DNA of 64,000 nt from Patescibacteria group bacterium (GCA_041661685.1 JBAZTY010000003.1:4606-68605), one strand, 5' to 3'; numbered from the stretch's first letter, positions 1-31,623 are shown. Notes: generated from the letters alone by a model not told the origin. Numbers and translations: made by a program.

Positions 1-40
1 GCCTTTTGAATTTTTGTTGTGTAAATCATAAATTTTAATG

Positions 41-427
41 TTAATTTTTTCCCAACCAATATACCCTTGGTTTGTCAGCGCCTTTAGGATAATCTTTTCT
101 AAGGCAAGGCTGAAATAACATAATCTCAAATATATTAGTTTTTTTTAATTTCTCAATTTCGGCAGCAGTTTTCACGGGGACATAAGTAACATATTGCGGA
201 TCATCACCGTCAACCCAATCTATTTCTTCATAAAACTCTTTAAAATATAGCTGCCCACATTCTTTACATTGGACTAGCCATCGAGAAAAGTGACTTTCAT
301 CTACAAAGGTTTCGATGAGTTCGAGATTATCGCAGCCCAGGTCATCTCTGCAGACATCATCATTCGCCCATAAATGGCATTGGATTGGTTTTACCATTTG
401 AGTTATTTCTATTTTATTGTTTTCCAT
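41..427 (-). CDS. hypothetical protein, 128 aa (ORF track 41..436 begins at an upstream GTG)
   Basis: Uninterrupted ORF. The ATG at 427 follows an AAGGGGGTGA Shine-Dalgarno-like run. Contains CKECG and other Cys, but no family recognised. Confidence 0.45.
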   Translation of the reverse strand: MENNKIEITQMVKPIQCHLWANDDVCRDDLGCDNLELIETFVDESHFSRWLVQCKECGQLYFKEFYEEIDWVDGDDPQYVTYVPVKTAAEIEKLKKTNIFEIMLFQPCLRKDYPKGADKPRVYWLGKN

Positions 428-436
428 ATTTATCAC

Positions 437-683
437 CCCCTTTCTAGCTTATCCGACAAAAAAAGCGGCTAAGAGATTTAACCAAAAGATATTGCTATCT
501 CTTAGATTGAAATCTCCCAACCGCCTTAACGATTAGTCACTTATTACATTTGGCTCTCAGCAGATTTCCCTGATTGCCTATTCACACGAGGTGAAAGAAA
601 TAAATGGTGCTGTTATGCTCCGCACTAGAGTTTGTATTGTTAACTACATTATTACTATAGCTGATAATTAGCGAAAAGTCAAA
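437..683 (-). promoter_or_regulatory. candidate promoter plus ~190-nt leader ending in a terminator-like hairpin just before the RBS of 41..427
   Basis: On the minus strand, TTGACT (682..677), a 17-nt spacer, then TATAGT (659..654). A 9-bp hairpin (505..497 with 477..469) is followed by CCGC and a U7 run (464..458), then AAGGGGG and the ATG. Confidence 0.3.
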
Positions 684-702
684 TTATTGTTATTTTAATT
701 GT

Positions 703-2208
703 TTAATTTGGAATAATATTAATAAGTTCTTTCCAAATAACATACATAGCATATGTATCTAAGCAGCAATATTTTAATAAATTTGCGGCTACCACTTGTT
801 GTTCTTCTGGCGATTTATTGCCAAAAACCATCTCATACCAGGCCTCCATCGCTGCGCCGCCTTCTTGAATTTCTAAATCTTTATAACTTAAGACTGGAGC
901 TAAGACTGGTAAAACTTTTTTTATAGATACTTTGCCCTTAAAACCAGGGTGAACATATAACTGTTTTTGGAAAATTTCCATTAAATCATATATTCTCTCA
1001 TTGATATCTCCTAAAAAATTAGCATCTTCGGGATGACGTTCTGCCAATTGGGCATTTATACTTTTTTCGAATCTTTTGCTCCAAACTATAATGCTCCCCG
1101 TTGAACCGATAAATTCTTTTAACTTGGAGATAATATGTTTTGATGGATCGGTATTTTCAGTATGCAAATATTCAAAATGTTCTAATTCTGCATCAGGACT
1201 TCGCAATACATGCAAGGAGAATTGAAAAGGAATTTGTTGATAAGGTTTAAATCCTTTAAATAATGGTATGGCTGGCGGGTATGTTTCGTAGTCTAAAAAA
1301 TATAAAGGATAGGTTAAAGATTCCAACTCTTTCTTTATTGAGTGTAAATCAATAATCGGAGTCTGCGTTTTATGAACATTTTTTTGATTTTGTTGAATAT
1401 CGGTTAATTTTATTGAATCAGGAATTTCAGCAATCTCATATATTTTAGAATCAACTAATTCAGCTAACTTCTTTTTACTTGTTCCTATTCTTGATAAATC
1501 ATGAATAGAATATTTAGGAACATCCGGATAAGAATAGCCAAAAGTAGAACAATGATTGCTTCTACCAAGATATATACACTGGCATTCTAAAGCATTTTCA
1601 TCTTCTTGAAATAAAGCCTCAGAAGCCATTTTCATTTTTATTCTAGTTGATTCAAGTCTTTTTTTAACTTGCTCGCTTATATCCTCTTTTATAAAAAGAG
1701 CATTAACATCAATTTCATCCCCCCTAATATATTCTTTATTTAAATGGACTAAATATATTTGCCCCAGCTTAATCCCAATATTATTTAATACTTCCACTTG
1801 GAAAGTAGCATCTTCAATATGATCAACCGAGTCTTCATTTTCATCTAAAGTATTTGTCCCCTTTATTTCATACAAATTCCAACAATCATTATCGGAATTG
1901 TATTCTAGAACATCATTTCTTACTAAAAATTTATCATTTATAAAAGTTGATTGAAAAATAATTTTCTTTTTTTCGCTTAAATATTGATTCGTTATAGTAT
2001 GCGCGCTTTCTCCATATTCAGAGATCAAGATTCCTTCTGGGAATAGCTTGCGTGCCCAAGATTCAACTAAATTACCTTTAGCAACTAAACTCTTATCAAA
2101 ATCTGATAATTCAAACATTTCCTTAAGCTCTGGTTTATTTAAATGTAGCCAAGCATTTTTAGGACATGAGGCAAATTGTAAATAGGTTGTTTTAGTTATT
2201 AGCTGCAT
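703..2208 (-). CDS. DUF2779-like protein (Cas4/RecB-like PD-(D/E)XK N-terminus plus RNase H-like exonuclease C-terminus)
   Basis: The N-terminal TKTTYLQFASCPKNAWL and C-terminal YFLDYETY ... KYCCLDTYAM patterns resemble DUF2779 proteins as I remember them. It is the last gene of the packed AT-rich operon. Confidence 0.55.
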   Translation of the reverse strand: MQLITKTTYLQFASCPKNAWLHLNKPELKEMFELSDFDKSLVAKGNLVESWARKLFPEGILISEYGESAHTITNQYLSEKKKIIFQSTFINDKFLVRNDVLEYNSDNDCWNLYEIKGTNTLDENEDSVDHIEDATFQVEVLNNIGIKLGQIYLVHLNKEYIRGDEIDVNALFIKEDISEQVKKRLESTRIKMKMASEALFQEDENALECQCIYLGRSNHCSTFGYSYPDVPKYSIHDLSRIGTSKKKLAELVDSKIYEIAEIPDSIKLTDIQQNQKNVHKTQTPIIDLHSIKKELESLTYPLYFLDYETYPPAIPLFKGFKPYQQIPFQFSLHVLRSPDAELEHFEYLHTENTDPSKHIISKLKEFIGSTGSIIVWSKRFEKSINAQLAERHPEDANFLGDINERIYDLMEIFQKQLYVHPGFKGKVSIKKVLPVLAPVLSYKDLEIQEGGAAMEAWYEMVFGNKSPEEQQVVAANLLKYCCLDTYAMYVIWKELINIIPN

Positions 2209-2220
2209 ACTTTATCATAT

Positions 2221-3108
2221 TTATAGCGTTTCTTCGTATGACTGTTTAATTATTTCAAAAACATCATCAACCTCTTTTAAAAATTTAACTTTTATTCTTC
2301 CTTTGTATCCCCACATATGAGTACTAATATCGGCTACTAAATTTTTTGGGTCATTATATTTAGGGCTTCTGACTAAAACATCCATAACATTTTTCCCAAA
2401 CTCAAATCTAATAAAACTTTTTGTAGTTCTATATGTTATTCCGGTTTTTTGATTAGAAAATTCCTCAACTTCTGGCAAAGATTGAATTTTTTCTTGAAAT
2501 CTATAAAAAATTTGCTTAATTTCTTCTGAAGAGTTGTGTTTTTTTAAATGGTACTCGATATCGTAAACCTCATCATTATTTGTTTTTATATGTTCTATTT
2601 CTTTTACAGCCTTTCTTGTTTGGCTTGGAACATAAACATTCTCCAAATAAAGAATATCCTGTTTATATGGCACGTATTTAATTAATTCTACACTATCAAC
2701 TTGCTGGACTGCAATTATTGTCCGGCTATCAAATCCTTGAGCGATTAAAATTACACGTGGGCTAGTCCAGTTAACTTTTTCGTCCCTCCCTAATTTATCT
2801 GCTACTAATAAATCGAAATGTTTCTTATTTTTTTTCAACCAATCTAGATAAAAAAGACCCTGAACAAAAATCGCATTATCTTGCCCCCATTTGTATTCGA
2901 TGATTACTGGTGAATTTGTTTCGTCCAATGCTATCGTATCCATTCTGCCCCCTTCGCTAGTTGGATATTCTTTAGCTAAAAATCTCATTCCAAGCAATTC
3001 TTCCAAGTTATTTGCAAAAAAATCTCGGAGTTCGGCCTCATTATTAAAATGATTAATATCTAAAAAAACTTGGCTAGCTTTTTTATTGTTCATTTGAAAT
3101 ATTGGCAT
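2221..3108 (-). CDS. NucS/DUF91-like PD-(D/E)XK nuclease domain protein with an unassigned C-terminal domain (possibly DUF5655-like)
   Basis: GRMDTIALDETNSPVIIEYKWG fits the G-x-D ... E-x-K nuclease core of NucS-type domains. There is a 12-nt gap to the downstream gene and a 1-nt gap to the upstream ORF. Confidence 0.5.
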   Translation of the reverse strand: MPIFQMNNKKASQVFLDINHFNNEAELRDFFANNLEELLGMRFLAKEYPTSEGGRMDTIALDETNSPVIIEYKWGQDNAIFVQGLFYLDWLKKNKKHFDLLVADKLGRDEKVNWTSPRVILIAQGFDSRTIIAVQQVDSVELIKYVPYKQDILYLENVYVPSQTRKAVKEIEHIKTNNDEVYDIEYHLKKHNSSEEIKQIFYRFQEKIQSLPEVEEFSNQKTGITYRTTKSFIRFEFGKNVMDVLVRSPKYNDPKNLVADISTHMWGYKGRIKVKFLKEVDDVFEIIKQSYEETL

Positions 3109-3109
3109 A

Positions 3110-3298
3110 CTATTTTTTTGTAATTAAATAGTTTTTCTGAAGTAAAATTAAATCTTTCTCCAAGTTTTTTAGTATTTTTATATTATTTTCAGTAAATTTA
3201 TTATCTCTAGAACTTTGTCTAATTAAACTTAAAATAGCCCCTAAAGTGCCAAAATAATCGTTTGATAGAATATGGAATTCAATTGATTTTTTGCTCAT
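3110..3298 (-). CDS. small hypothetical protein (62 aa)
   Basis: The ORF fills the gap between the HNH and NucS-like genes exactly (12-nt and 1-nt spacers). No recognisable motif. Confidence 0.4.
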   Translation of the reverse strand: MSKKSIEFHILSNDYFGTLGAILSLIRQSSRDNKFTENNIKILKNLEKDLILLQKNYLITKK

Positions 3299-3310
3299 AT
3301 ACCATGAATG

Positions 3311-4657
3311 CTAATATATGTATATGTGATAAAAAGAGGCAAATTTGGGAAAATTTAATTCAGGATCGACTGCCTGTAAATTATCTTTATATTTATGGAA
3401 TAATTCGGATATAACTTCGCTTTTTTGCACTGGTATAGCATTATGAATCTTGCTATGGCAGTGGGGGCACAAAGGCGTTATATTCTGCGGACAATCTAAA
3501 TTGATTTTTCTCTCAGTCCAGTATTGGTGTTGATACTCCATAGGTATCATGTGATGACCCTCAACAAAATTTTCTTTTGTCGAATTGGCTGTAAAATATA
3601 AATGTTCCTTACTATGGCAGCCGCACATATAATCGTGAGCCTCCATTGATTGAATTTTGTATCTTTTTTGCGTTGTAAATATTTTTTTACCTTTAGAATT
3701 GTATGCGGTCGTAACAGGTATTTTGAATTCTGGTAAACCAGCTATATTAATTGGCTCCTCTGCAATTTCTTCTTCCACTTCTGTTAATTCGGTGGCTACA
3801 ATTTCTAACTCAGAGCTGATATTTAAAACAGGATAAAGTTTTGAATCAATTGTTTTAATATATTCTATATATTCATTTAAAACTTTGATTGTGTAGTCTT
3901 TTGTTTGTTTCAGGGCAAGACTGATGTCAATATTTTTTCCTTTTAATATATGGGTTGTAGCCAATAATTTTAATGCAAAGGCTTTTTGTTCTTGTCCTTT
4001 AGGTTCTTTCTCAAATGAAGCTACCAATACGCCATTTTCAATTCTTAATTGTTTAAACTGCGAATTTGTAGGATAACTAGCTTGTAAAAAATTCGTATGC
4101 TCAATAATTTCTTCTACGGTATTATAACGACCAGCAATATTTAAATTTTTAATAGGAAAGACTTCTATAAACTCAAACCCTAGATTATTTGCGAAATTCA
4201 CCGTCATTTGAATATTTGAATCCCAAGTGGTTTCATTTTTTTCTTTCGACATTATCTCTGACTTATGAGTTGTCAGCAAACATATTTTTTTAATCTTATC
4301 ATCAATTAGAAAATCTTTATTTCTTGCTAATTTTGAAGTAACCATCGGCATTACTTGTTGGTTAAACCATACGTTGCCACTTTTCCCATAGAGAGTCGTA
4401 AAAGACACAACCACTTCTTTTAAGCCTTCTAAATCTCCTGACACATATCCATTATACATATGATACAAACCGCTTTCTCCACTATTAAAAAAATCATATC
4501 CGCTAATGGAAAGAAAATTATATTCATCATTTAATTTCTTTATTACATCATTAAGGAAGGATTCTCTGTCTGAATAATCATAAACTCTCAATAGTTTTAA
4601 ATTTTCTTCTTCATTCAAACTATCAAAAAATACTTTATTGATTTTTAAAATTTGCAT
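3311..4657 (-). CDS. HNH endonuclease domain protein, candidate restriction enzyme
   Basis: C-terminal CGC ... EGHHMIP ... LCPHCHSKIHN is a classic HNH zinc-finger nuclease signature. Its start overlaps the methyltransferase stop by 13 nt. The N-terminal ~330 aa are unrecognised. Confidence 0.65.
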   Translation of the reverse strand: MQILKINKVFFDSLNEEENLKLLRVYDYSDRESFLNDVIKKLNDEYNFLSISGYDFFNSGESGLYHMYNGYVSGDLEGLKEVVVSFTTLYGKSGNVWFNQQVMPMVTSKLARNKDFLIDDKIKKICLLTTHKSEIMSKEKNETTWDSNIQMTVNFANNLGFEFIEVFPIKNLNIAGRYNTVEEIIEHTNFLQASYPTNSQFKQLRIENGVLVASFEKEPKGQEQKAFALKLLATTHILKGKNIDISLALKQTKDYTIKVLNEYIEYIKTIDSKLYPVLNISSELEIVATELTEVEEEIAEEPINIAGLPEFKIPVTTAYNSKGKKIFTTQKRYKIQSMEAHDYMCGCHSKEHLYFTANSTKENFVEGHHMIPMEYQHQYWTERKINLDCPQNITPLCPHCHSKIHNAIPVQKSEVISELFHKYKDNLQAVDPELNFPKFASFYHIYIY

Positions 4658-6534
4658 ATTCTTTTTCCTCCTATTAAATTATAATTTGTTATAATAACCT
4701 CTTTTCTTATTGAATGGTCTAATTCTATAATATTAAAATTATGAGACTCAATCCATTCTAATAATAAGTGGTTTGTTTTATTTTTGTGATAAATTATGTT
4801 TGATAGGATAAACCTGCGGCCACTATCATGAAGAGCAGTTAGGTGTTTTAGTAACTTGGCCTCAGAGTCTGCATTCCAACCATTAAAACCTCTCTTTCCG
4901 TCGTTATAGGTTGCATTAGTTATGAAATATGGAGGATCAAAATAGAATAATGCTTGTTCATCGTACTCGTTAAAATTTATTTTTAAACAATCCTTATTTA
5001 AAAAATATATTTTTTTTGATTTTGGTTTAAATTTTTTTAATCTATCGCTGATTGTTCCATTGTAGGCACAGTTTCCCACGGGAGTATTGAAATTTAATTT
5101 GGAATTAAATCTAATCTGATTCTGGAAACAAAACATTGTTAAAATAAATAAATCTAAATCCTTTTTAGATTTATTGTATTTATTTCTAAATATATTATAT
5201 TTTTCAGAATTTCCTTTTTCTAAATTATAAGAATCAACCGTCTTATCTAAATATTCAATAATTTCTTTAGAGTCAGTATTTAATAATTTTTTTACTAATT
5301 TATATACAAATGGATTATATTCATTATATACTACTTTTTCTGCTACTATATTTACCCCAACGTTAAAAGCACCCCCCATCATGTCAACAAAAGAACTTAT
5401 GTGCTCTGGCAAATATTTTATCATTTGCTGCATTAAATCATTTTTACTTCCTGAGTAATTCAGCGGTGATTTTATAATCTCATTATTTTTTTTAATATAT
5501 AGTAAAACCTCAAATAATTTATCCCCTTTTTGGCTCGAATGAATATTTTTATATTCTCTGTAATCAACAAGACTTTTTATAACTTTCCCGTCTATTGCGT
5601 AACTGGATAACATTTTTTCTAACTCATCTAACGGTATCACCGATTGGTTGCTATAACTAATAACAATATCATTAAATTGTGCTTGCCTTATTAAATCTTC
5701 AAACGCGAAAAGCGCGGTTTTTTCTCGTGTATAATGAGATTTTTTATCATTTTCAGTTCTGCGTCCAGTAATACCGGCAATTCCAGGATAATCATATTTG
5801 GCTATAGTTTCTAAAACATGATAAGCGGACGAATATTCAGTAACAGTATATGGCGGATCTATATATAATATATCGCCAGATATTTTTCTTATTAATGAAT
5901 TTGCGTCCTCGTTGTAAACTAAATTTTCCTTATTTATTGATTTACAATTATTTATTTCCATCGGCAAAAATCGAAATTTTTTCAACGATCTTCTGTCCCA
6001 TTCTTTTAAAAATGCTTCGTAAGTACCAGAGGTATTAGAAAATCGCATTATGCTTTCTATTAAACTCCCTAATAAAAAATAATATTCTTTTTCATTAAAT
6101 ATTAAATTTTTATATAATTCCTCTATTTCAATTCTGATTGAATCAATGACAATAGCATTTTCTTCTGAAAAGAATTTACGGCCTCCTTTTGGTGAATAAT
6201 TATTGGTTACAAAATAATGATTTTTATACTCGTGCGTTTTTTTCCCAAAATAATCAAATGGGTCATTATTATATGTGTTTCTAAATTTTTCAAAAGTCGG
6301 TTTATTGTTGTTATATATTTTTGCTTTCGTTATAACAGAAGAACATACTAAAAAATCATTGGCAATTATTTTATAATTATGCTTAAACGCATCAGCAACG
6401 CTACCAGTTCCCGAAAATATGTCACAAAAAGATTCACCTTTAATTTTATTATCCGAAAAAAAGTCAATAATATTATTGACTAATCTGGTTTTATTGCCTA
6501 TATATCTCATAAAGTTATAATTCACGCAAAACAA
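4645..6534 (-). CDS. fused tandem N6-adenine DNA methyltransferase (two D12/Dam-class modules)
   Basis: Module 1 has YIGNKTRL, DIFSGTGSV and IDPPY. Module 2 has YSGSKNDL, DMMGGAFNVG and FDPPY. The likely true start is MRYIGNK at 6510. Confidence 0.8.
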   Translation of the reverse strand: MFCVNYNFMRYIGNKTRLVNNIIDFFSDNKIKGESFCDIFSGTGSVADAFKHNYKIIANDFLVCSSVITKAKIYNNNKPTFEKFRNTYNNDPFDYFGKKTHEYKNHYFVTNNYSPKGGRKFFSEENAIVIDSIRIEIEELYKNLIFNEKEYYFLLGSLIESIMRFSNTSGTYEAFLKEWDRRSLKKFRFLPMEINNCKSINKENLVYNEDANSLIRKISGDILYIDPPYTVTEYSSAYHVLETIAKYDYPGIAGITGRRTENDKKSHYTREKTALFAFEDLIRQAQFNDIVISYSNQSVIPLDELEKMLSSYAIDGKVIKSLVDYREYKNIHSSQKGDKLFEVLLYIKKNNEIIKSPLNYSGSKNDLMQQMIKYLPEHISSFVDMMGGAFNVGVNIVAEKVVYNEYNPFVYKLVKKLLNTDSKEIIEYLDKTVDSYNLEKGNSEKYNIFRNKYNKSKKDLDLFILTMFCFQNQIRFNSKLNFNTPVGNCAYNGTISDRLKKFKPKSKKIYFLNKDCLKINFNEYDEQALFYFDPPYFITNATYNDGKRGFNGWNADSEAKLLKHLTALHDSGRRFILSNIIYHKNKTNHLLLEWIESHNFNIIELDHSIRKEVIITNYNLIGGKRICKF

Positions 6535-6747
6535 AAAAGTGGAGCTGTTTAAATTTTACCATTTTGATGTAAAAATAACAATAAAAATAGCCCAAATCTA
6601 TCAACTTGCCGCAGATAATTATTTAAACTATAATAAAAATTACTATGAACACTACAAATCCATAAAAACATGACTTCTTGACAAATTTACATATAAAATG
6701 TTGATATTCCCTGTCGCGAGGCGGGAATATTTTTAATAAAAAACAAT

Positions 6748-7560
6748 ATGAAAGCCTATTGCTCCGGGTTGAAAGAAAAAATGCTGGAATTAACTAGGCT
6801 TTTTTGCGTAGAAAGGAACGTTTTTCAAAAATTCGTTATTATTTATAGATATATTACCCTTATCGACAAAGACCCGATCACTCATGATATTCTCCAGAAG
6901 ATATTTGATGACACGGTTAAAACCATGGGCGAAGCTGGAGATGAACTTAATGAAAACAATTTTCTAAATGTTAAAAGCGAGATAATTCATACTAATGAAT
7001 TTTGGGTGTATTATTCTAACCTTAAAATAATACATAGCCGGATGAAAAAATTAAAAGAGTGTAAAATTCACGAAAAATCAGAATTTGATAGTTTATGCCG
7101 CCTTTTTTCTAAACCCTATTCCCCTGAATCGCTTAAGCTCTCGTTTAAGGTCGTAAATAGCAATATTTTTGATCATTTAGACCAAGAGAGCTTTCTTGAG
7201 GATGACGAAGATGATAAAAAAACGTGGTTTGACGATAAAAAAAGTATTCTATACATAAAAGGCGAAAAAATAAGAATAAGAAGAAAAAGTGCAGATTCCA
7301 ACGATCATAAAATATTAAAATATATTTTTACTGACAATAAAGAAAATTTAGAAGACGATTTCTTTTTTTCCGAAATGGCCGAAGACGCATTTGGGGATGA
7401 GGAATATCGAAACGATAAAAATTCCTGGCGGCGATATCATGACGCCTGTCTTAAATTAAAAAATAAGGTTGTGGATAACACTAAAAATAGAATAAACGAT
7501 TTTTTTATTTTTAGCTCCGGTCAAAAGGGTTCGATTAAAATTAACCCTAAATACCTATAA
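6748..7560 (+). CDS. hypothetical protein (270 aa), acidic/Lys-rich
   Basis: Long AT-rich ORF divergent from the methyltransferase operon and followed by a clear terminator. No family recognised. Confidence 0.5.
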   Translation: MKAYCSGLKEKMLELTRLFCVERNVFQKFVIIYRYITLIDKDPITHDILQKIFDDTVKTMGEAGDELNENNFLNVKSEIIHTNEFWVYYSNLKIIHSRMKKLKECKIHEKSEFDSLCRLFSKPYSPESLKLSFKVVNSNIFDHLDQESFLEDDEDDKKTWFDDKKSILYIKGEKIRIRRKSADSNDHKILKYIFTDNKENLEDDFFFSEMAEDAFGDEEYRNDKNSWRRYHDACLKLKNKVVDNTKNRINDFFIFSSGQKGSIKINPKYL

Positions 7561-7623
7561 TTTTATAAAAAAACTTTGACCATTCTTTCAGCCGAAGATG
7601 GTCAAACTCCACTTTCATACAAT

Positions 7624-7652
7624 AGCCTCATAACGATTATGAGGCTTTTTTT
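7624..7652 (+). terminator. rho-independent terminator
   Basis: AGCCTCATAA / TTATGAGGCT form a 10-bp stem with a 3-nt loop, followed by a T6 run. Confidence 0.7.
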
Positions 7653-7732
7653 ATTAAGCCCCAAAACCGCTATCGCCCAGTAAAGGTCGAGGCGCAAAAA
7701 TTAATTAATAAACAAAATTAACATCTGCAATT

Positions 7733-8005
7733 ATGTTTTACATCAAAGGAACAATAAAAGACGACAAGATAGAAAACTTCACCCGCAAAGACGGAACGCC
7801 CGGCCAAAAGCGGTTGCTTTACGTCGAGCCGTTAAACAGCATTTATCCGATAACCGTTAATGTGCCTCTAAACAAGGACTACGGCAAAATCGGCGCTAAG
7901 GTGGAGGTCGAGGTAAAGGTTTACCCCTTCTCTTTCGTCAACAAAGAGCGTCAAAGGGCTTTCCTTTCGGTTTACGTTCCGGAAGACGAGACCGGTAAAA
8001 AATAG
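7733..8005 (+). CDS. hypothetical 90-aa protein, positionally equivalent to inovirus ssDNA-binding protein (gV-like)
   Basis: Its size and its position just upstream of the small coat-like ORFs match gV. The function call is positional only; no motif recognised. Confidence 0.4.
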   Translation: MFYIKGTIKDDKIENFTRKDGTPGQKRLLYVEPLNSIYPITVNVPLNKDYGKIGAKVEVEVKVYPFSFVNKERQRAFLSVYVPEDETGKK

Positions 8006-26442: not shown

Positions 26443-26617
26443 AGGCTCGAACTGGACTTTGGAACATAAAAAACTTGAAATGTTAGCTTATAAATGGTTA
26501 ATGCCGATACAAAAATCGCAAACACTCCTTAACGACGAAATAGCAAGGTTCGAACTGAGAAATACCCCCATAACAAAAGGACGAAATGAGCTTTTATGCC
26601 TACTTCGTCCTACTCTG
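26443..26617 (+). pseudogene. 3' fragment of a serine recombinase gene (direct repeat copy 2)
   Basis: It matches 15531..15705 with 4 substitutions and encodes only the last ~58 residues before the tRNA. No upstream recombinase sequence is present. Confidence 0.7.
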
Positions 26618-26702
26618 CGGAGAGAGAGGGATTCGAACCCTCGGTACCTTGCGGTACACAGACTTTCCAGGTCTGCGCACTAGACCGCTATGCGACCTCT
26701 CC
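26618..26702 (-). tRNA. tRNA-Ser (anticodon GGA)
   Basis: Minus strand reads GGAGAGG ... CAGAC-CTGGAAA-GTCTG ... long variable arm (GTACCGCAAGGTAC) ... GGGTTCGAATCCC ... TCTCTCC-G. 85 nt. Confidence 0.85.
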
Positions 26703-27481: not shown

Positions 27482-28918
27482 TTATTCTAAAATTCTAGCT
27501 ACTTTTATGACTAAGCCTTCTTTCAGACGCGGACCGACGAGCTGCGCGCCAATCGGCATGCGCTTCCCTTCTTCGACTTCTATCGTTCCGACTGAAACGG
27601 AAATCGCCGGCAAGCCGGCCAAGCTCGCGCCGACCGCAAAGACGTCTTCCAGATACATGGCTAAAGGATCATTCACTTGCTGCCCGATTTTAAAAGCCGC
27701 GTGCGGCGATGTCGGGGTTAATAAAATATCAACTTTCTTAAAAGCCTCTTCGAAATCCTTAATAATCAAAGTGCGAACGGCCTGCGCTTTTTTGTAATAA
27801 GCATCATAATAACCGGCGCTGAGAGCGTAAGTCCCGAGCATGATGCGGCGCTTCGCTTCCGGCCCAAAACCAGCGCCGCGCGTCGCCTTATAGAACTCCT
27901 GTAGATTATCAGTTTCCGTCTTAGCTAATCCCCAACCGATGCCGTCGAAGCGCGCTAAATTAGAACTGACTTCCGAGGGCGTAATAATATAATAAACCGG
28001 AATGCCATACTTCGTATAAGGCAGGCTGACCTTAACGAGTTCAGCTCCGGCCGCTTTAAGTTTATCGGCGGCCGCAATCAATCTCGCCGCCACTTCTCCG
28101 TCTAGATCTTTCAAATAATATTCCTCCGGCAAGCCGACCCTCAGGCCTTTTAAGGATTTATTCTCGGCTTCTTTCTCATAGGCATTAATCGCTTCTGGCG
28201 CAGTCGTCGCGTCACGGTCGTCATCACCGGCAATCGCTTTCAAGACTAAGGCGGCGTCATAAACAGTTTTTGCTAGAGGCCCGACTACATCGGTAGAAGA
28301 GGTCATAGATAAGAGCCCGAAGCGAGAAACGCGCCCATAACTCGGTTTTAAGCCCACGACACCGCAGAAACTAGCTGGCTGACGAATAGAGCCCCCGGTA
28401 TCGGTTCCTAGGGCAAATAGGCACATATTAGCGGCCACAGCAGCCGCGCTGCCGCCCGATGACCCTCCGGCTACCCGGCTCAAATCATAAGGATTTTTAG
28501 TCGGTCCAAAGGCGGAGTTTTCCGTCGAAGCGCCGTGGGCGAATTCGTCTAAATTAGTCTTTCCTAACATGATTGCGCCGGCAGCTTTAAGTTTTGCGAC
28601 TACGGTCGCGTCATAAGGAGCGATATAATTTTCCAATATCTTAGAAGCGGCGGTCGTCCTGATACCTTTAGTCATCAGGATATCCTTACAGAGGTAAGGA
28701 ATACCGAGCAGATCGCCGCGCTCGCCGGACTTTATTCTCTTATCGGCCGCCTCGGCTTCAGCCAGAGCTTCTTTTTCGCAGACAGTCAGACAGGCATGAA
28801 TTTCCTGATCCGCTTCTTTTATCTTTTTAAAACAGGCTCGCGCCAAATCAACGGAGCTTATTTCTCCGCTATCCAACTTCACACGCGCTTCTTTTATTGT
28901 CAGTTCGTTTAGATTCAT
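27482..28918 (-). CDS. gatA: Asp-tRNA(Asn)/Glu-tRNA(Gln) amidotransferase subunit A
   Basis: Amidase signature GGSSGGSAAAVA, GTDTGGSIRQPA, and the typical length and N-terminus. Confidence 0.92.
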   Translation of the reverse strand: MNLNELTIKEARVKLDSGEISSVDLARACFKKIKEADQEIHACLTVCEKEALAEAEAADKRIKSGERGDLLGIPYLCKDILMTKGIRTTAASKILENYIAPYDATVVAKLKAAGAIMLGKTNLDEFAHGASTENSAFGPTKNPYDLSRVAGGSSGGSAAAVAANMCLFALGTDTGGSIRQPASFCGVVGLKPSYGRVSRFGLLSMTSSTDVVGPLAKTVYDAALVLKAIAGDDDRDATTAPEAINAYEKEAENKSLKGLRVGLPEEYYLKDLDGEVAARLIAAADKLKAAGAELVKVSLPYTKYGIPVYYIITPSEVSSNLARFDGIGWGLAKTETDNLQEFYKATRGAGFGPEAKRRIMLGTYALSAGYYDAYYKKAQAVRTLIIKDFEEAFKKVDILLTPTSPHAAFKIGQQVNDPLAMYLEDVFAVGASLAGLPAISVSVGTIEVEEGKRMPIGAQLVGPRLKEGLVIKVARILE

Positions 28919-29010
28919 AAACTGCTTTTAGCTAACTATATCAATACTTTTATTTCTCCTTTAAAAAATATTTAGTTTTATTTAATCACCTGATTGTTAA
29001 ACTTATTTTC

Positions 29011-29087
29011 GGTGTGGGCCCGGGAGTGGTCCGGAGCCAAACTTAACAATTGGCTTCCCGGGGTTCGACTCCCTGCGGGTCCACACC
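29011..29087 (+). ncRNA. tRNA-like structured element (non-canonical; not a callable tRNA)
   Basis: A 12-bp terminal stem (29011..29022 with 29076..29087, one G-T). A T-arm-like CGGGG-TTCGACT-CCCTG (29059..29075). A 6-bp stem (29035..29040 with 29050..29055) with a 9-nt loop. A TGTTAAACT extended -10-like box lies 7 nt upstream. Confidence 0.3.
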
Positions 29088-29151
29088 TGGAAGGGGAAAA
29101 TTGACAAGAAAAAATAATTTGCTATAATAATATTATTGTTAAGTTTGGCTC
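29034..29151. repeat. perfect 17-bp inverted repeat flanking an 84-bp segment that contains a promoter
   Basis: GAGCCAAACTTAACAAT (29034..29050) is the exact reverse complement of ATTGTTAAGTTTGGCTC (29135..29151). Confidence 0.85.
29101..29128 (+). promoter_or_regulatory. near-consensus sigma70-type promoter
   Basis: TTGACA (29101..29106), a 16-nt spacer, then TATAAT (29123..29128). Confidence 0.55.
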
Positions 29152-29206
29152 AACCTGAACCGCAACGGAAGTATAAAAATCTCCCATCAGGGGGATTTTT
29201 TATTTT
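29135..29206 (+). ncRNA. candidate ~70-nt small RNA with intrinsic terminator, antisense to the gatC-gatA spacer
   Basis: The predicted start is ~7 nt after the -10 box. It contains a CCG-CAA-CGG hairpin. The terminator AAATCTCCC-ATCA-GGGGGATTT plus a T-run folds better on the plus strand (G-U rather than C-A). Confidence 0.35.
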
Positions 29207-29492
29207 ACAAGACTCTCTTCACCTTAACTTGACCGCCTTCCCTCTCACCCTGATTAAGCGCGGCTTCAACCTCTTCTTGGTTCCATTCGTGCACGTCATC
29301 GGCTCGCCAAATATCGCTCAGGCCGCTAACTTGCGCTGTCGGTTCGATATTCTTCGTATCGACTTCGTTGAGCTGGCTGATATATTTCAAAATAGAGTCA
29401 AGCTGGCCGCCGAATTTAGTCATCTCTTCCTCGCTGAGCTCTAAGCGCGACAGCTCGGCGATATGTTTTATCTCTTCACGGGTTATGGACAT
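29205..29492 (-). CDS. gatC: Asp-tRNA(Asn)/Glu-tRNA(Gln) amidotransferase subunit C
   Basis: 95 aa. The patterns IKHIAELSRLELSEEE and LDSILKYISQLNEVDT are typical GatC. Confidence 0.9.
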   Translation of the reverse strand: MSITREEIKHIAELSRLELSEEEMTKFGGQLDSILKYISQLNEVDTKNIEPTAQVSGLSDIWRADDVHEWNQEEVEAALNQGEREGGQVKVKRVL

Positions 29493-29493
29493 A

Positions 29494-31623
29494 TTATTTT
29501 ATCATTTTCAAAAATTCATCTTCTTCTAATATCTTTATTCCCATCCTTTTAGCGTCTTCATATTTAGATCCGGGTTCGGCGCCGACGACGACATAATCAG
29601 TTTCGCGAACGACGCTCGTTTTGACCTTCCCGCCCGCTGCCTTAATCTTATCTTTCGCCTCATCCCTTGTCAAACCGTTTAAAGAACCGGTCAGGACAAA
29701 GTTTTTTCCAAAAAATTCGCCAGGCGCAGCATTAGGGTTAGCGTTAATTCGGCCTATCTTTAAGGACACCCCGTTATCTATGAATTTCTCCATCATTTTC
29801 AGATCGGCTTCATCGCGCCAAAAATCATGAATACTTTTCGCGACTATCGGACCGACATCCGGCATATTCTCTAAATCTTCTAAACTAAAATCTTGAAAAT
29901 ATCTGATTAACTTTTTGATAGATAGGCCATTTTTATTTATAGCAGCCCTTTCTTTTATCTTCTCCGCCAATAACCCGGCCGTCTCTTCGCCGACATGCCG
30001 AATGCCTAAACCATAGATAAAGCGATCAAGGGGTAATTCACGTCGGGAAACAATCATATTGATAACATTATCCGCCTTCTTCTCAGCAAATCTTTCTAGG
30101 CTCAATAAATCCAGTTTTTTCAGAGCATATAAATCAGCTGCGTCTTTTATCAGACTATTAGTAATAAATTGCTCAATCAGCTTCGGCCCTAGGCCATCAA
30201 TATCCGCGGCGCCTTTAGAAACAAAGTGAGTGATTCGGCGCATATTAACGGCATAGCAGCGCTTATTGGCACAGCGATAAGCGACTTCCCTGGCGGCTTT
30301 AACGACTCGGCCGCCGCAAATCGGGCATTCTTTCGGCGCCTCAATCTTTTTCTCTTTTCCGCCCCGCAAATTTTTCAAGACCTCGACGACTTTAGGAATA
30401 ACATCGCCGGAACGCTCGATGATCACAGTATCGCCCAGACGCAAATCTAAGCGCCCAATCTCATCAAAATTATGCAAAGTAGAGCGGCCGATAGTGACGC
30501 CGCCGACTTTCACTGGTTCTAAGATGGCCGTCGGCGTCAGAGCGCCGGTGCGGCCAACCTGCCAGACGACATCATTTATTCTAGTCGTCGCCTGCGCAGC
30601 CGAAAATTTATAAGCCATCATATAGCGCGGCGCCTTGCCGACTATGCCGAGCGTATTCCACATCTTAAGGTCGTTAACTTTGACGACTGTGCCGTCGATC
30701 TCAAACGCCAGCGCGGCGCGTTTCTTCTCGACCTCGGCATAGAAACGGAAGACCGCTTCCAGGTCCGGACAGATTTTATTCTGCTGCAAAGTCTTAAAGC
30801 CTAAAAGATTAGCTAGGGCATCGGCTTGATCGCGACGACGAATAAGTTCTCCTCTCTCATAGTTATCCAAAAGCAAGTCATAAGCATAAAATTCCAGTTT
30901 CCGCTCAGCCGTAATCTTCGAATCTAGCTGGCGGATAGAGCCGGCGACGCCGTTGCGCGTATTGGCCAGCGGGGCTTTACCAGCGGCGACATATTTCTTA
31001 TTCAGAGCGGTAAAAGTCTTGTTGGACATAATCGCTTCTCCGCGCAGTTCTATCGTGCCTGAATCAACCAGCTCAAAAATCTTCTTCATTTCCGCGTCAG
31101 TCAAGCCGAGCTCACGCAGCTCTTTATCAGTCGGACGGCGGAGCCGCAGCGGAATACTGTTTATCGTCTTGATATTACGGGTCACGTCTTCTCCGATCTT
31201 ACCGTCGCCACGAGTTGCTCCTTGAATCAATAAGCCGTTCTTATATCTTAAATTTATCGCCAAGCCGTCTAATTTTAACTCGCAATAATATTCCGCTTTG
31301 AGCGGCCGCTTCAAATAATTATCATTCCTTTCTTTCCAAGCGCGCATATCCCCTTCGCTAAAAGCATCGAAGAGAGAAATCATGGGACTAGAATGCGTTA
31401 CCTTCTTAAATTTATCTGAGGCCGCTCCGGCCACGCGCTGGGTTGGAGAATCAGGAGTAATGAGCTCCGGGAATTCATTTTCGAGACGGAAAAGATCATT
31501 CTTCAAGCTATCTAGAGCCGCCGGAGAGATGGTCTCCTGGTCGAGGACATGATAATTATAGCGAAGAAGATCTATCTCCGCTTTTAGCTTATCTATTCTA
31601 TTTTTAACTTCATTTTTGTTCAT
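29494..31623 (-). CDS. ligA: NAD-dependent DNA ligase
   Basis: Adenylation motif CELKLDGLA, a Zn-finger CPICGG ... C, HhH repeats and a C-terminal BRCT-like FVLTGSL. 709 aa. Confidence 0.95.
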   Translation of the reverse strand: MNKNEVKNRIDKLKAEIDLLRYNYHVLDQETISPAALDSLKNDLFRLENEFPELITPDSPTQRVAGAASDKFKKVTHSSPMISLFDAFSEGDMRAWKERNDNYLKRPLKAEYYCELKLDGLAINLRYKNGLLIQGATRGDGKIGEDVTRNIKTINSIPLRLRRPTDKELRELGLTDAEMKKIFELVDSGTIELRGEAIMSNKTFTALNKKYVAAGKAPLANTRNGVAGSIRQLDSKITAERKLEFYAYDLLLDNYERGELIRRRDQADALANLLGFKTLQQNKICPDLEAVFRFYAEVEKKRAALAFEIDGTVVKVNDLKMWNTLGIVGKAPRYMMAYKFSAAQATTRINDVVWQVGRTGALTPTAILEPVKVGGVTIGRSTLHNFDEIGRLDLRLGDTVIIERSGDVIPKVVEVLKNLRGGKEKKIEAPKECPICGGRVVKAAREVAYRCANKRCYAVNMRRITHFVSKGAADIDGLGPKLIEQFITNSLIKDAADLYALKKLDLLSLERFAEKKADNVINMIVSRRELPLDRFIYGLGIRHVGEETAGLLAEKIKERAAINKNGLSIKKLIRYFQDFSLEDLENMPDVGPIVAKSIHDFWRDEADLKMMEKFIDNGVSLKIGRINANPNAAPGEFFGKNFVLTGSLNGLTRDEAKDKIKAAGGKVKTSVVRETDYVVVGAEPGSKYEDAKRMGIKILEEDEFLKMIK

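Follow-up and report, generated by a model that had tools for sequence, protein, structure and literature searches.

In the 64,000-nucleotide stretch of a Patescibacteria group bacterium analysed here (GCA_041661685.1 JBAZTY010000003.1:4606-68605; hereafter the window), a minus-strand gene series comprises ligA (29494-31623), gatC (29205-29492), a spacer, gatA (27482-28918), a DsbA-like gene and a tRNA-Ser gene, with identities around the gatC-gatA spacer assigned from Pfam. The spacer is 286 nt long (28919-29204) and is bounded by the start codon of gatA (28916-28918, minus strand) and the stop codon of gatC (29205-29207). Within it lies an element of about 210 bases in which a tRNA-like RNA and a predicted antisense small RNA (sRNA) are arranged in tandem on the plus strand, each preceded by its own promoter-like motif. 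Comparison with relatives indicates that the spacer content is an inserted cassette and not a feature of the gat operon, and the sequences are best explained by two RNA genes that together form a self-contained and horizontally mobile cassette, encoded on the other strand from ligA-gatC-gatA. The features of the spacer are as follows.

28919..28994, no strand assigned: variable AT-rich filler between the gatA start and promoter P1, not a conserved part of the cassette
28995..29003, plus strand: P1, extended -10 promoter-like motif TGTTAAACT (TGnTAnnnT), 12 nt before G1
29011..29087, plus strand: precursor-like helix, in which a 5-nt leader (GGTGT) pairs with a 5-nt trailer (ACACC); co-varies in the family
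29016..29083, plus strand: tRNA-like RNA, 68 nt, from the constrained fold, partial Rfam matches, family alignment with covariation, and covariance model score
29034..29050, plus strand: target arm of the duplex, within the anticodon-like arm: 5' strand of the stem, complete loop and a single nt of the 3' strand
29101..29128, plus strand: P2, predicted sRNA promoter TTGACA-16-TGcTATAAT, a 12/12 match with a TG-extended -10
29135..29204, plus strand: predicted antisense sRNA of about 70 nt (seed 29135-29151, terminator hairpin 29175-29200, T-run to 29204)
29175..29204, plus strand: intrinsic terminator (hairpin 29175-29200 and T-run), adjoining the gatC stop

The initial annotation of this spacer had described a 12-bp terminal stem with a T arm, a reduced D region and a 9-nt loop, and had held that this was not a normal tRNA, all of which was confirmed. 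The terminal helix (29011-29022/29076-29087) contains 12 bp with one G.U pair and, when read as a tRNA, divides into a 7-bp acceptor stem (29016-29022/29076-29082) and a 5-bp leader/trailer extension. A constrained fold places a D hairpin (29023-29032; GGA-GUGG-UCC, a 3-bp stem with the loop GUGG) directly next to the acceptor stem, followed by an anticodon-like arm with an 8-bp stem (29033-29040/29050-29057) and a 9-nt loop (29041-29049, ACUUAACAA), with no variable region. The T arm (29059-29075; stem 29059-63/29071-75) reads CGGGG-TTCGACT-CCCTG, giving the loop UUCGACU. The fold energy of the element is -49.7 kcal/mol (z = -4.6). No CCA is encoded at its end, as is also the case for two tRNA-Ser genes of the host.

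The window copy carries G1-C72, G2-C71, G3.U70 (29018.29080) and discriminator A73 (29083) in its 7-bp acceptor stem, which is the alanine set common to tRNA-Ala and transfer-messenger RNA (tmRNA), and at the level of sequence it has tRNA-Ala identity. Its 3' half is found verbatim in phage tmRNA 3' ends and in one tRNA-Ala. The ARAGORN and Rfam scans that the initial annotation had proposed yielded, respectively, neither a tRNA nor a tmRNA call, and matches below threshold to tmRNA ends (24.5 bits; gathering 47) and to mascRNA (38.8 bits; gathering 42.5), both in E-value mode. The Rfam tRNA gathering score was not reached, and the copy departs from a canonical tRNA in its 9-nt loop, its 3-bp D stem, and its lack of an 8-9 linker and of a variable region. 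In the tmRNA alignment the first and last model positions fall on 29016-29086 with 310 model positions deleted; a tRNA-like domain is present, and an mRNA-like domain with a tag frame and pseudoknots is not. With a covariance model of the family described below, the window copy scored 77.9 bits, compared with at most 51.6 bits for ordinary tRNAs.

The position of P1 implies a 5' leader of 2-5 nt on the tRNA-like RNA. The consensus promoter claimed initially, TTGACA-16-TATAAT, is present in full at P2, and the predicted sRNA start (29135) was placed 7 nt after its -10 hexamer. The terminator was likewise as first described, with a call on the plus strand and none on the minus strand, where its one G.U pair turns into A.C. 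The cassette strand showed no conserved open reading frame, start codon or ribosome-binding site, such as the mRNA of a type I toxin peptide would have. Neither a motif search nor the covariance model found a further cassette in the 64-kb window, which therefore holds one copy only.

Layout and conservation of the cassette family

Metagenomes were scanned with a pattern consisting of a T arm...UCCA followed by TTGAC-N-TATAAT, which returned at least 120 matches, mostly ordinary tRNA and tmRNA genes followed by a promoter. Cassettes were selected by requiring that sequence upstream of the T arm be complementary to sequence beyond the promoter, and about 21 distinct cassettes from Patescibacteria-type contigs were obtained among the scan matches listed and the copies found by synteny. 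Their order and spacing are fixed: P1, a tRNA-like RNA of 68-72 nt, a near-consensus P2, and an sRNA with a terminator. In most cassettes G1 is preceded, at a distance of 17-21 nt, by a TGnTAnnnT motif or a TATAAT-like hexamer, and the same holds for L342a, L342b and L095. Across the family, the tRNA-like RNA has a mini D arm, an anticodon-like arm with a loop of 8-10 nt and a canonical T arm, and its short leader pairs with its trailer. The complement to the anticodon-like arm starts 1-9 nt (mostly 5-8) after the P2 -10, and every cassette has a hairpin and T-run 60-79 nt after the start of the complement.

The scan pattern itself included P2, the T loop and UCCA, but neither P1 nor the terminator nor the spacing between the -10 and the complement. 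Only five members are independent of the pattern, namely the window copy and, by synteny, L095, L337, L342a and L342b; all five retain all features, and the L342 T loops, which would not match the pattern, still have GGG...UCCA. A near-consensus P2 was present in 6/6 cassettes that had not been selected for a promoter (the window copy, L337, L342a, L342b, L095 and L239a).

Two adjacent copies occur in each of L342, L292 and L239. The L239 members (945-1028 and 1670-1753, minus strand, 725 nt apart) are full cloverleaf tRNAs that ARAGORN called tRNA-Glu(UUC) and Rfam called tRNA; they have a tRNAGlu-like D arm, yet carry the G3.U70/A73 alanine set. Downstream of each lie a promoter of its own, an antisense sRNA that spans the entire anticodon loop, and a terminator, and these sRNAs have a GGGAGUCGRACUCC hairpin in place of the D-arm complement. 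Apart from the tRNA family for the L239 members, no Rfam family reached its gathering threshold on the window cassette and 16 other cassette loci.

In the alignment of 18 sequences, G1-C72, G2-C71, G3.U70 and A73 were invariant (18/18; also in L337 and L342a/b), and A3-U70 was never seen, although the search left the 5' side unconstrained. Covariation was seen in acceptor pairs 4-7 and in the outer pairs of the T stem, as well as in the anticodon-like stem and between leader and trailer. Cells of the alignment were paired in 90.8% of cases, compared with 71% in shuffles and 41-54% in controls with slid partners, and 65 cells showed double changes, compared with 18.8 in shuffles. The alignment thus points to purifying and compensatory selection on the tRNA-like structure. 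All members scored at least 55.7 bits with the covariance model, above the 51.6-bit maximum of ordinary tRNAs, and no match was found in 80 GatA loci of other lineages.

Two divergent candidates scored just under the range of the members, L293 with 49.1 bits and L336 with 51.5 bits. In both (L336 1053-1132, plus strand; L293 6624-6703, minus strand) a tRNA-like element is followed by a promoter, and the downstream RNA of L336 seems complementary to the 3' acceptor strand (GGTGGAGCTCA) in place of the anticodon-like arm, so that these may represent a variant subfamily. Elsewhere on cassette-bearing contigs, Rfam matches above threshold were a DUF3800-V RNA (L290 2768-2860, plus strand) and a class A RNase P RNA (L326 5337-5752, plus strand).

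Pairing between the sRNA and the anticodon-like arm

The initial annotation had pointed to an exact 17-nt complementarity between 29034-29050 and 29135-29151. This inverted repeat is complementary at 17/17 positions with 84 nt between its arms, and by our own arithmetic (about 4e4 arm placements x 4^-17) its chance expectation is about 2e-6. The decisive point is that the same arrangement recurs, with different sequences, in about 20 other cassettes. In every member the best duplex, of 15-24 bp, joins the 5' end of the sRNA to the anticodon-like arm, at its loop and the 5' strand of its stem; the arm differs in sequence from cassette to cassette, and in each case the start of the downstream sRNA matches it. 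Cognate duplexes had a mean of -31.2 kcal/mol, compared with -16.3 +/- 5.2 kcal/mol for non-cognate combinations, and the two cassettes of L292 showed no cross-pairing and are mutually orthogonal.

With G.U and A.C scored equally, the duplexes contained 300 Watson-Crick, 21 G.U, 5 A.C and 5 other cells. The excess of G.U over A.C (binomial p = 0.0025) therefore reflects a constraint on the RNA of the cassette strand and not a symmetry of the DNA. Compensated changes were also seen between orthologues, the window having ACTTAACAA/ATTGTT and L342 having ACTTAACAG/ACTGTT. From the window to L342a, the loop changes from ...CAA to ...CAG together with AUUG to ACUG in the sRNA, and the stem changes from CCAA to CCGA, matched by UUGG to UCGG in the sRNA as well as in the 3' strand, a three-way compensation.

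Beyond a short bulge, many members have a further sRNA segment that is complementary to the D arm (-12.2 compared with -8.1 kcal/mol, p = 3e-5). The loops usually follow NN-YU-NNN-A-N, which corresponds to an anticodon loop or a YUNR-type U-turn. U-turn loops of the YUNR type speed antisense recognition. Among the readings first offered for the spacer, an sRNA that base-pairs with a tRNA-like RNA is thus the one borne out, with complementarity kept in every member, compensated changes in orthologues and the 21 to 5 ratio of G.U to A.C. The data support the anatomy and family conservation of the cassette, covariation both within the structure and between the two molecules, and pairing at the RNA level on the cassette strand, and we are confident that the cassette is a real, conserved RNA-RNA module.

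Two further sequences in the window resemble parts of the repeat. Upstream of the tRNA-like gene, ATTGTTAAACTT at 28993-29004 resembles the sRNA seed and forms a partial third copy, and 59282-59298 matches the target arm with two mismatches, which is within chance expectation for the 64-kb window.

Insertion sites and occurrence in relatives

A comparison of gatC-gatA spacers, also proposed at the outset, found that the spacer measures 1-12 nt in genomes whose GatA is 93, 91, 90, 87, 87, 86, 85 and 75% identical to that of the window. The window spacer is 100% identical and in the same orientation in two other assemblies, making three assemblies of the same strain. In L337 (GatA 88% identical) an orthologous cassette occupies the same gatC-gatA site in the same orientation. 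L095 (GatA 91% identical) has a homologous cassette in the ligA-gatC spacer, where L327 also carries one, and L342 (GCA_009885285.1; GatA 84% identical) has cassettes in both spacers flanking gatC (2680-2935 and 3224-3500). Both L342 cassettes are antisense and their pairing addresses differ; L342a is the orthologue of the window copy, and the ligA-gatC cassettes of L095, L327 and L342 are paralogous to it. Presence/absence polymorphism and multiple insertion sites are therefore evident, and this patchy presence at different sites in relatives means that the element is dynamic.

Elsewhere, cassettes neighbour unrelated housekeeping genes, including miaA, murA/priA, rsmA, leuS, hisS, comF, dprA, gatC/ligA, a glycosyltransferase gene and others, and no cassette-associated protein was found among the neighbour genes. 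Since close relatives lack the cassette and its neighbours elsewhere are unrelated genes, it is best regarded as an insertion, and the suggestion of a feature belonging to the gatCA operon was not upheld. Filled and empty sites place an insert of about 282 nt within CAT-AA|TT-TTA. The filler at 28919-28994 has a 27-nt deletion in L337 and a different sequence in L342a, and no such region exists at L222. An outward promoter for gatA in this left part of the spacer (minus-strand TGaTATAGT) was considered and rejected, as it is deleted in L337.

The cassette of L222 (2135-2340) lies inside a MiaB-like gene (minus-strand open reading frame 1157-2672), in the linker between the UPF0004 domain (residues 3-94) and the radical SAM domain (residues 213-385). 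The 504-residue frame remains open across the antisense of the entire cassette, which adds about 70 residues. Insertion can therefore also take place outside intergenic DNA, and a minimal cassette comes to about 205 nt.

About 17 of the 21 cassettes are antisense to all visible neighbours. The simplest reason for this bias is that the terminator is one-directional: inserted in the sense direction within an operon, the cassette would have polar effects and would be expressed without control by read-through from the host, and the bias fits selection against both. A family-specific pattern had no match in IMG/VR, a broader T-arm pattern found tmRNA and tRNA genes there, none with the cassette layout, and BLAST searches against phages and plasmids gave AT-rich chance matches only.

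Possible function, related systems and alternative explanations

Our favoured proposal, for which we see about equal grounds for belief and for doubt, is an antisense-controlled, alanine-chargeable tRNA mimic with toxin-antitoxin-like logic. The first gene, transcribed from the extended -10 promoter, would produce a 68-nt mimic with a canonical acceptor/T-arm half. The invariant alanine set, along with the T arm and the GG of the D loop, argues that this mimic would be handled as a tRNA, with processing by RNase P and RNase Z like the host tRNAs that lack an encoded CCA, CCA addition, and charging by alanyl-tRNA synthetase (AlaRS). The second gene, from the stronger near-consensus promoter, would produce a terminated sRNA of about 70 nt whose 5' end is complementary to the anticodon-like arm. 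Pairing would open the anticodon-like and D arms, and the mimic would be inactivated or exposed to duplex-specific cleavage. A stable, potentially harmful Ala-charged mimic would in this way be restrained by an abundant cognate antisense RNA, each cassette having its own pairing address. The private and diverging addresses, the tandem orthogonal copies, the mobility and the absence of any protein suggest that this is probably an RNA-only, toxin-antitoxin-like, selfish module. A link to translation is offered by the L239 pair, in which the alanine set is combined with a UUC anticodon; tRNAAla variants whose anticodons are not those of alanine cause mistranslation, and growth of yeast is reduced by 36 of 60 such variants (PMC10543346).

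Several points weigh against this proposal. Its functional part, from transcription, processing and aminoacylation to toxicity and the antitoxin role, is inferred throughout. The window copy is non-canonical, which makes ribosomal decoding doubtful, with titration of tRNA-handling factors or tmRNA-like ribosome entry as alternatives to decoding, and two members have an alanine anticodon-like triplet (AGC) and would not mistranslate. The D-arm pairing is weak in the window copy (rank 11/18). Transcripts from P1 have no terminator of their own, and pairing could also act in cis. The invariance of UCCA and of the T loop is partly a matter of ascertainment, both being fixed by the scan pattern. 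As for mobility, neither terminal repeats nor target duplications could be defined from filled and empty sites.

A more specific version, which we consider unlikely, holds that the toxin acts by mis-decoding, an Ala-charged tRNA forming an RNA-only addiction or defence module in which the sRNA antitoxin masks the anticodon and D arms. The L239 members (UUC) would then insert alanine at glutamate codons, and members with 9-nt loops, such as the window copy, would miscode or shift frame. Loss of a labile sRNA, through loss of the cassette or a shut-off of transcription during phage infection, would lead to proteome-wide mistranslation.

The closest known systems each share one aspect only with the cassettes, be it the identity set, the adjacent antisense gene, the RNA-RNA nature or the hybrid identity. 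With tRNA-Ala and the tRNA-like domain of tmRNA, the cassette RNA shares the 7-bp acceptor stem with the alanine set, the canonical T arm, and a reduced D region that keeps GG. It differs in having no alanine anticodon, mRNA-like domain or pseudoknots, in its length of 68-72 nt, and in being multi-copy, mobile, variable and accompanied by a dedicated antisense gene. The resemblance to mascRNA and MEN-beta (RF01684) extends to the acceptor stem, a directly adjoining 3-bp D stem with a 4-nt loop, and the absence of a variable loop; those RNAs are, however, vertebrate and cut from long non-coding RNAs, the score of 38.8 bits is below the gathering threshold, and the resemblance is one of convergent tRNA mimicry.

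Type I toxin-antitoxin systems with an adjacent antisense gene (tisB/istR-1, zorO/orzO, shoB/ohsC) are likewise small two-gene modules with an sRNA under a strong promoter, about 17-20 nt at the sRNA 5' end complementary to the partner, and pairs that diversify into private specificities, and hok/sok-type antisense systems have a YUNR-like U-turn motif in the target loop. The cassettes share with type I systems an adjacent antisense sRNA with short complementarity, but their partner is not the mRNA of a toxic peptide, and their genes are in tandem and not divergent or overlapping. In type VIII systems (creTA, SdsR/RyeA), as would be the case here, both components are RNAs, with translation or the tRNA supply as a likely target. 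CreT is reported to sequester a rare tRNA (PMC8501985). CreA, however, acts via Cascade on the creT promoter, whereas the cassettes would use direct RNA-RNA pairing without a protein partner, and their putative toxin would itself be a tRNA mimic. Toxicity and neutralisation of the type VIII kind may be argued indirectly from the private specificities, the mobility and the promoter asymmetry.

Acceptor identity uncoupled from the anticodon, as in L239 (alanine set with UUC), is also a property of allo-tRNAs, of non-alanine tRNAs with G3:U70, and of tRNAProX of Streptomyces, a natural hybrid-identity, mistranslating tRNA (PMC11415595). None of these is known to have an antisense sRNA dedicated to it or to form a mobile cassette between genes, and most cassette members, including the window copy, differ from them in their loops of 8-10 nt and mini D arms. 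No description of the cassette family was found in the literature on tRNA-like RNAs of Patescibacteria or the candidate phyla radiation, two-piece tmRNA, RNA toxins, mistranslating, hybrid or toxic tRNAs, and structured RNAs.

If the proposal is true, the cassettes would represent a class of bacterial genetic elements that consist solely of two small RNA genes. They would connect the study of tRNA identity and mistranslation with that of control by antisense RNA and of selfish, toxin-antitoxin-like elements, three fields that have so far been separate. The setting would be the Patescibacteria, whose tiny genomes are thought to hold little accessory baggage. For annotation, the cassettes interrupt seemingly tight operons and are overlooked by ARAGORN and Rfam or, in L239, filed as an ordinary tRNA-Glu. 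The model also lends itself to direct testing, with two RNAs, each about 70 nt long, a single enzyme (AlaRS) and a single predicted duplex.

Among the rival explanations, the sRNA could be the effector, regulating mRNAs through its 5' seed, with the tRNA-like RNA serving as a sponge or decoy or as a stabilising or processing module. The complement lies exactly at the sRNA 5' end, where many sRNA seeds are found, and sponges derived from tRNA precursors are known, such as 3'ETS-leuZ. The seed, however, differs in each cassette, allowing no common target, and co-varies with the adjacent arm; a sponge would need no invariant alanine set, T arm or D-loop GG, and the sole extra near-match in the 64-kb window is within chance. 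We therefore think it improbable.

Lower still in our estimation is a minimal or split tmRNA-like ribosome-rescue RNA, in which a tmRNA reduced to its tRNA-like domain would have the sRNA as its partner piece. The Rfam alignment to both tmRNA ends and the identity of the 3' half with 3' ends of phage tmRNAs and of a tRNA-Ala favour this reading, and tmRNAs consisting only of the tRNA-like domain exist in jakobid mitochondria. A rescue RNA is at odds with an element that is multi-copy, variable and mobile, with two adjacent copies in L342, L292 and L239, and absent from close relatives. Moreover, only about 20-45 nt lie between the duplex and the terminator, often complementary to the D arm, no sRNA reading frame is conserved (ATEV* in the window, ATKV* in L337, unrelated in L342a), and the 3' part of the sRNA exits at the core-side end of the helix and not where a message would enter the decoding site.

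A role at the DNA level, with the hairpins belonging to a small non-autonomous transposon or recombination substrate and the RNAs being incidental, is very unlikely. It would account for the patchy presence, the several insertion sites and the strong orientation bias, which is also seen in some single-strand DNA transposons, but not for the preference for G.U over A.C (21 to 5), the invariant tRNA identity nucleotides, or the precise placement of promoters and terminator around the paired segments; no terminal repeats, target duplication or transposase were found.

The initial annotation had also entertained an invertible promoter cassette, which when flipped between the 17-bp repeats would drive gatA. 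A perfect inverted repeat does flank a consensus promoter, as in invertons, but neither a cognate invertase nor arms conserved like recombinase sites were found; the arms differ in each copy, the G.U/A.C asymmetry is that of an RNA, and inversion would destroy the conserved tRNA-like gene. At the level of assemblies a single orientation was seen in the three assemblies of the same strain and in the L337 and L342 orthologues, and no recombinase lies within about 10 kb of the window cassette, leaving this reading with hardly any credibility. An equally slight chance attaches to a minus-strand cis leader of gatA (a tRNA mimic sensed by GatCAB, or an attenuator) or a decayed tRNA/tmRNA integration scar, the latter also raised initially as a decayed tRNA-targeting insertion site: the position inside a tRNA-dependent amidotransferase operon fits, but the element is absent from the gat operons of close relatives and present beside unrelated genes, its structure and pairing signals are on the plus strand, it is intact and co-varying under purifying and compensatory selection, and the third repeat copy (28993-29004), which could pair on the minus strand with two G.U pairs, was rejected as a partner because it coincides with the P1 -10 region and is not kept in L342a.

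Some further observations concern the surroundings of the gat locus. The tRNA-Ser(gga) gene of the window lies at 26617-26702. In L094 (OW818634.1), a relative with 90% identity, its place after the DsbA-like gene is occupied by a gene for a large serine recombinase (5214-6761, minus strand; Resolvase, Recombinase and Zn_ribbon_recom domains), which may belong to an element integrated at that tRNA. The first 8000 positions of the window (1-8000) have a G+C content of 0.28-0.32, compared with about 0.45 in the remainder, and may be a foreign or otherwise atypical segment. Between 33434 and 43110 (minus strand), large proteins without a Pfam match (540, 915 and 837 residues) are encoded beside a Peptidase_S74 (endosialidase chaperone) protein, and a similar S74 protein is encoded near ligA in the relative L339.

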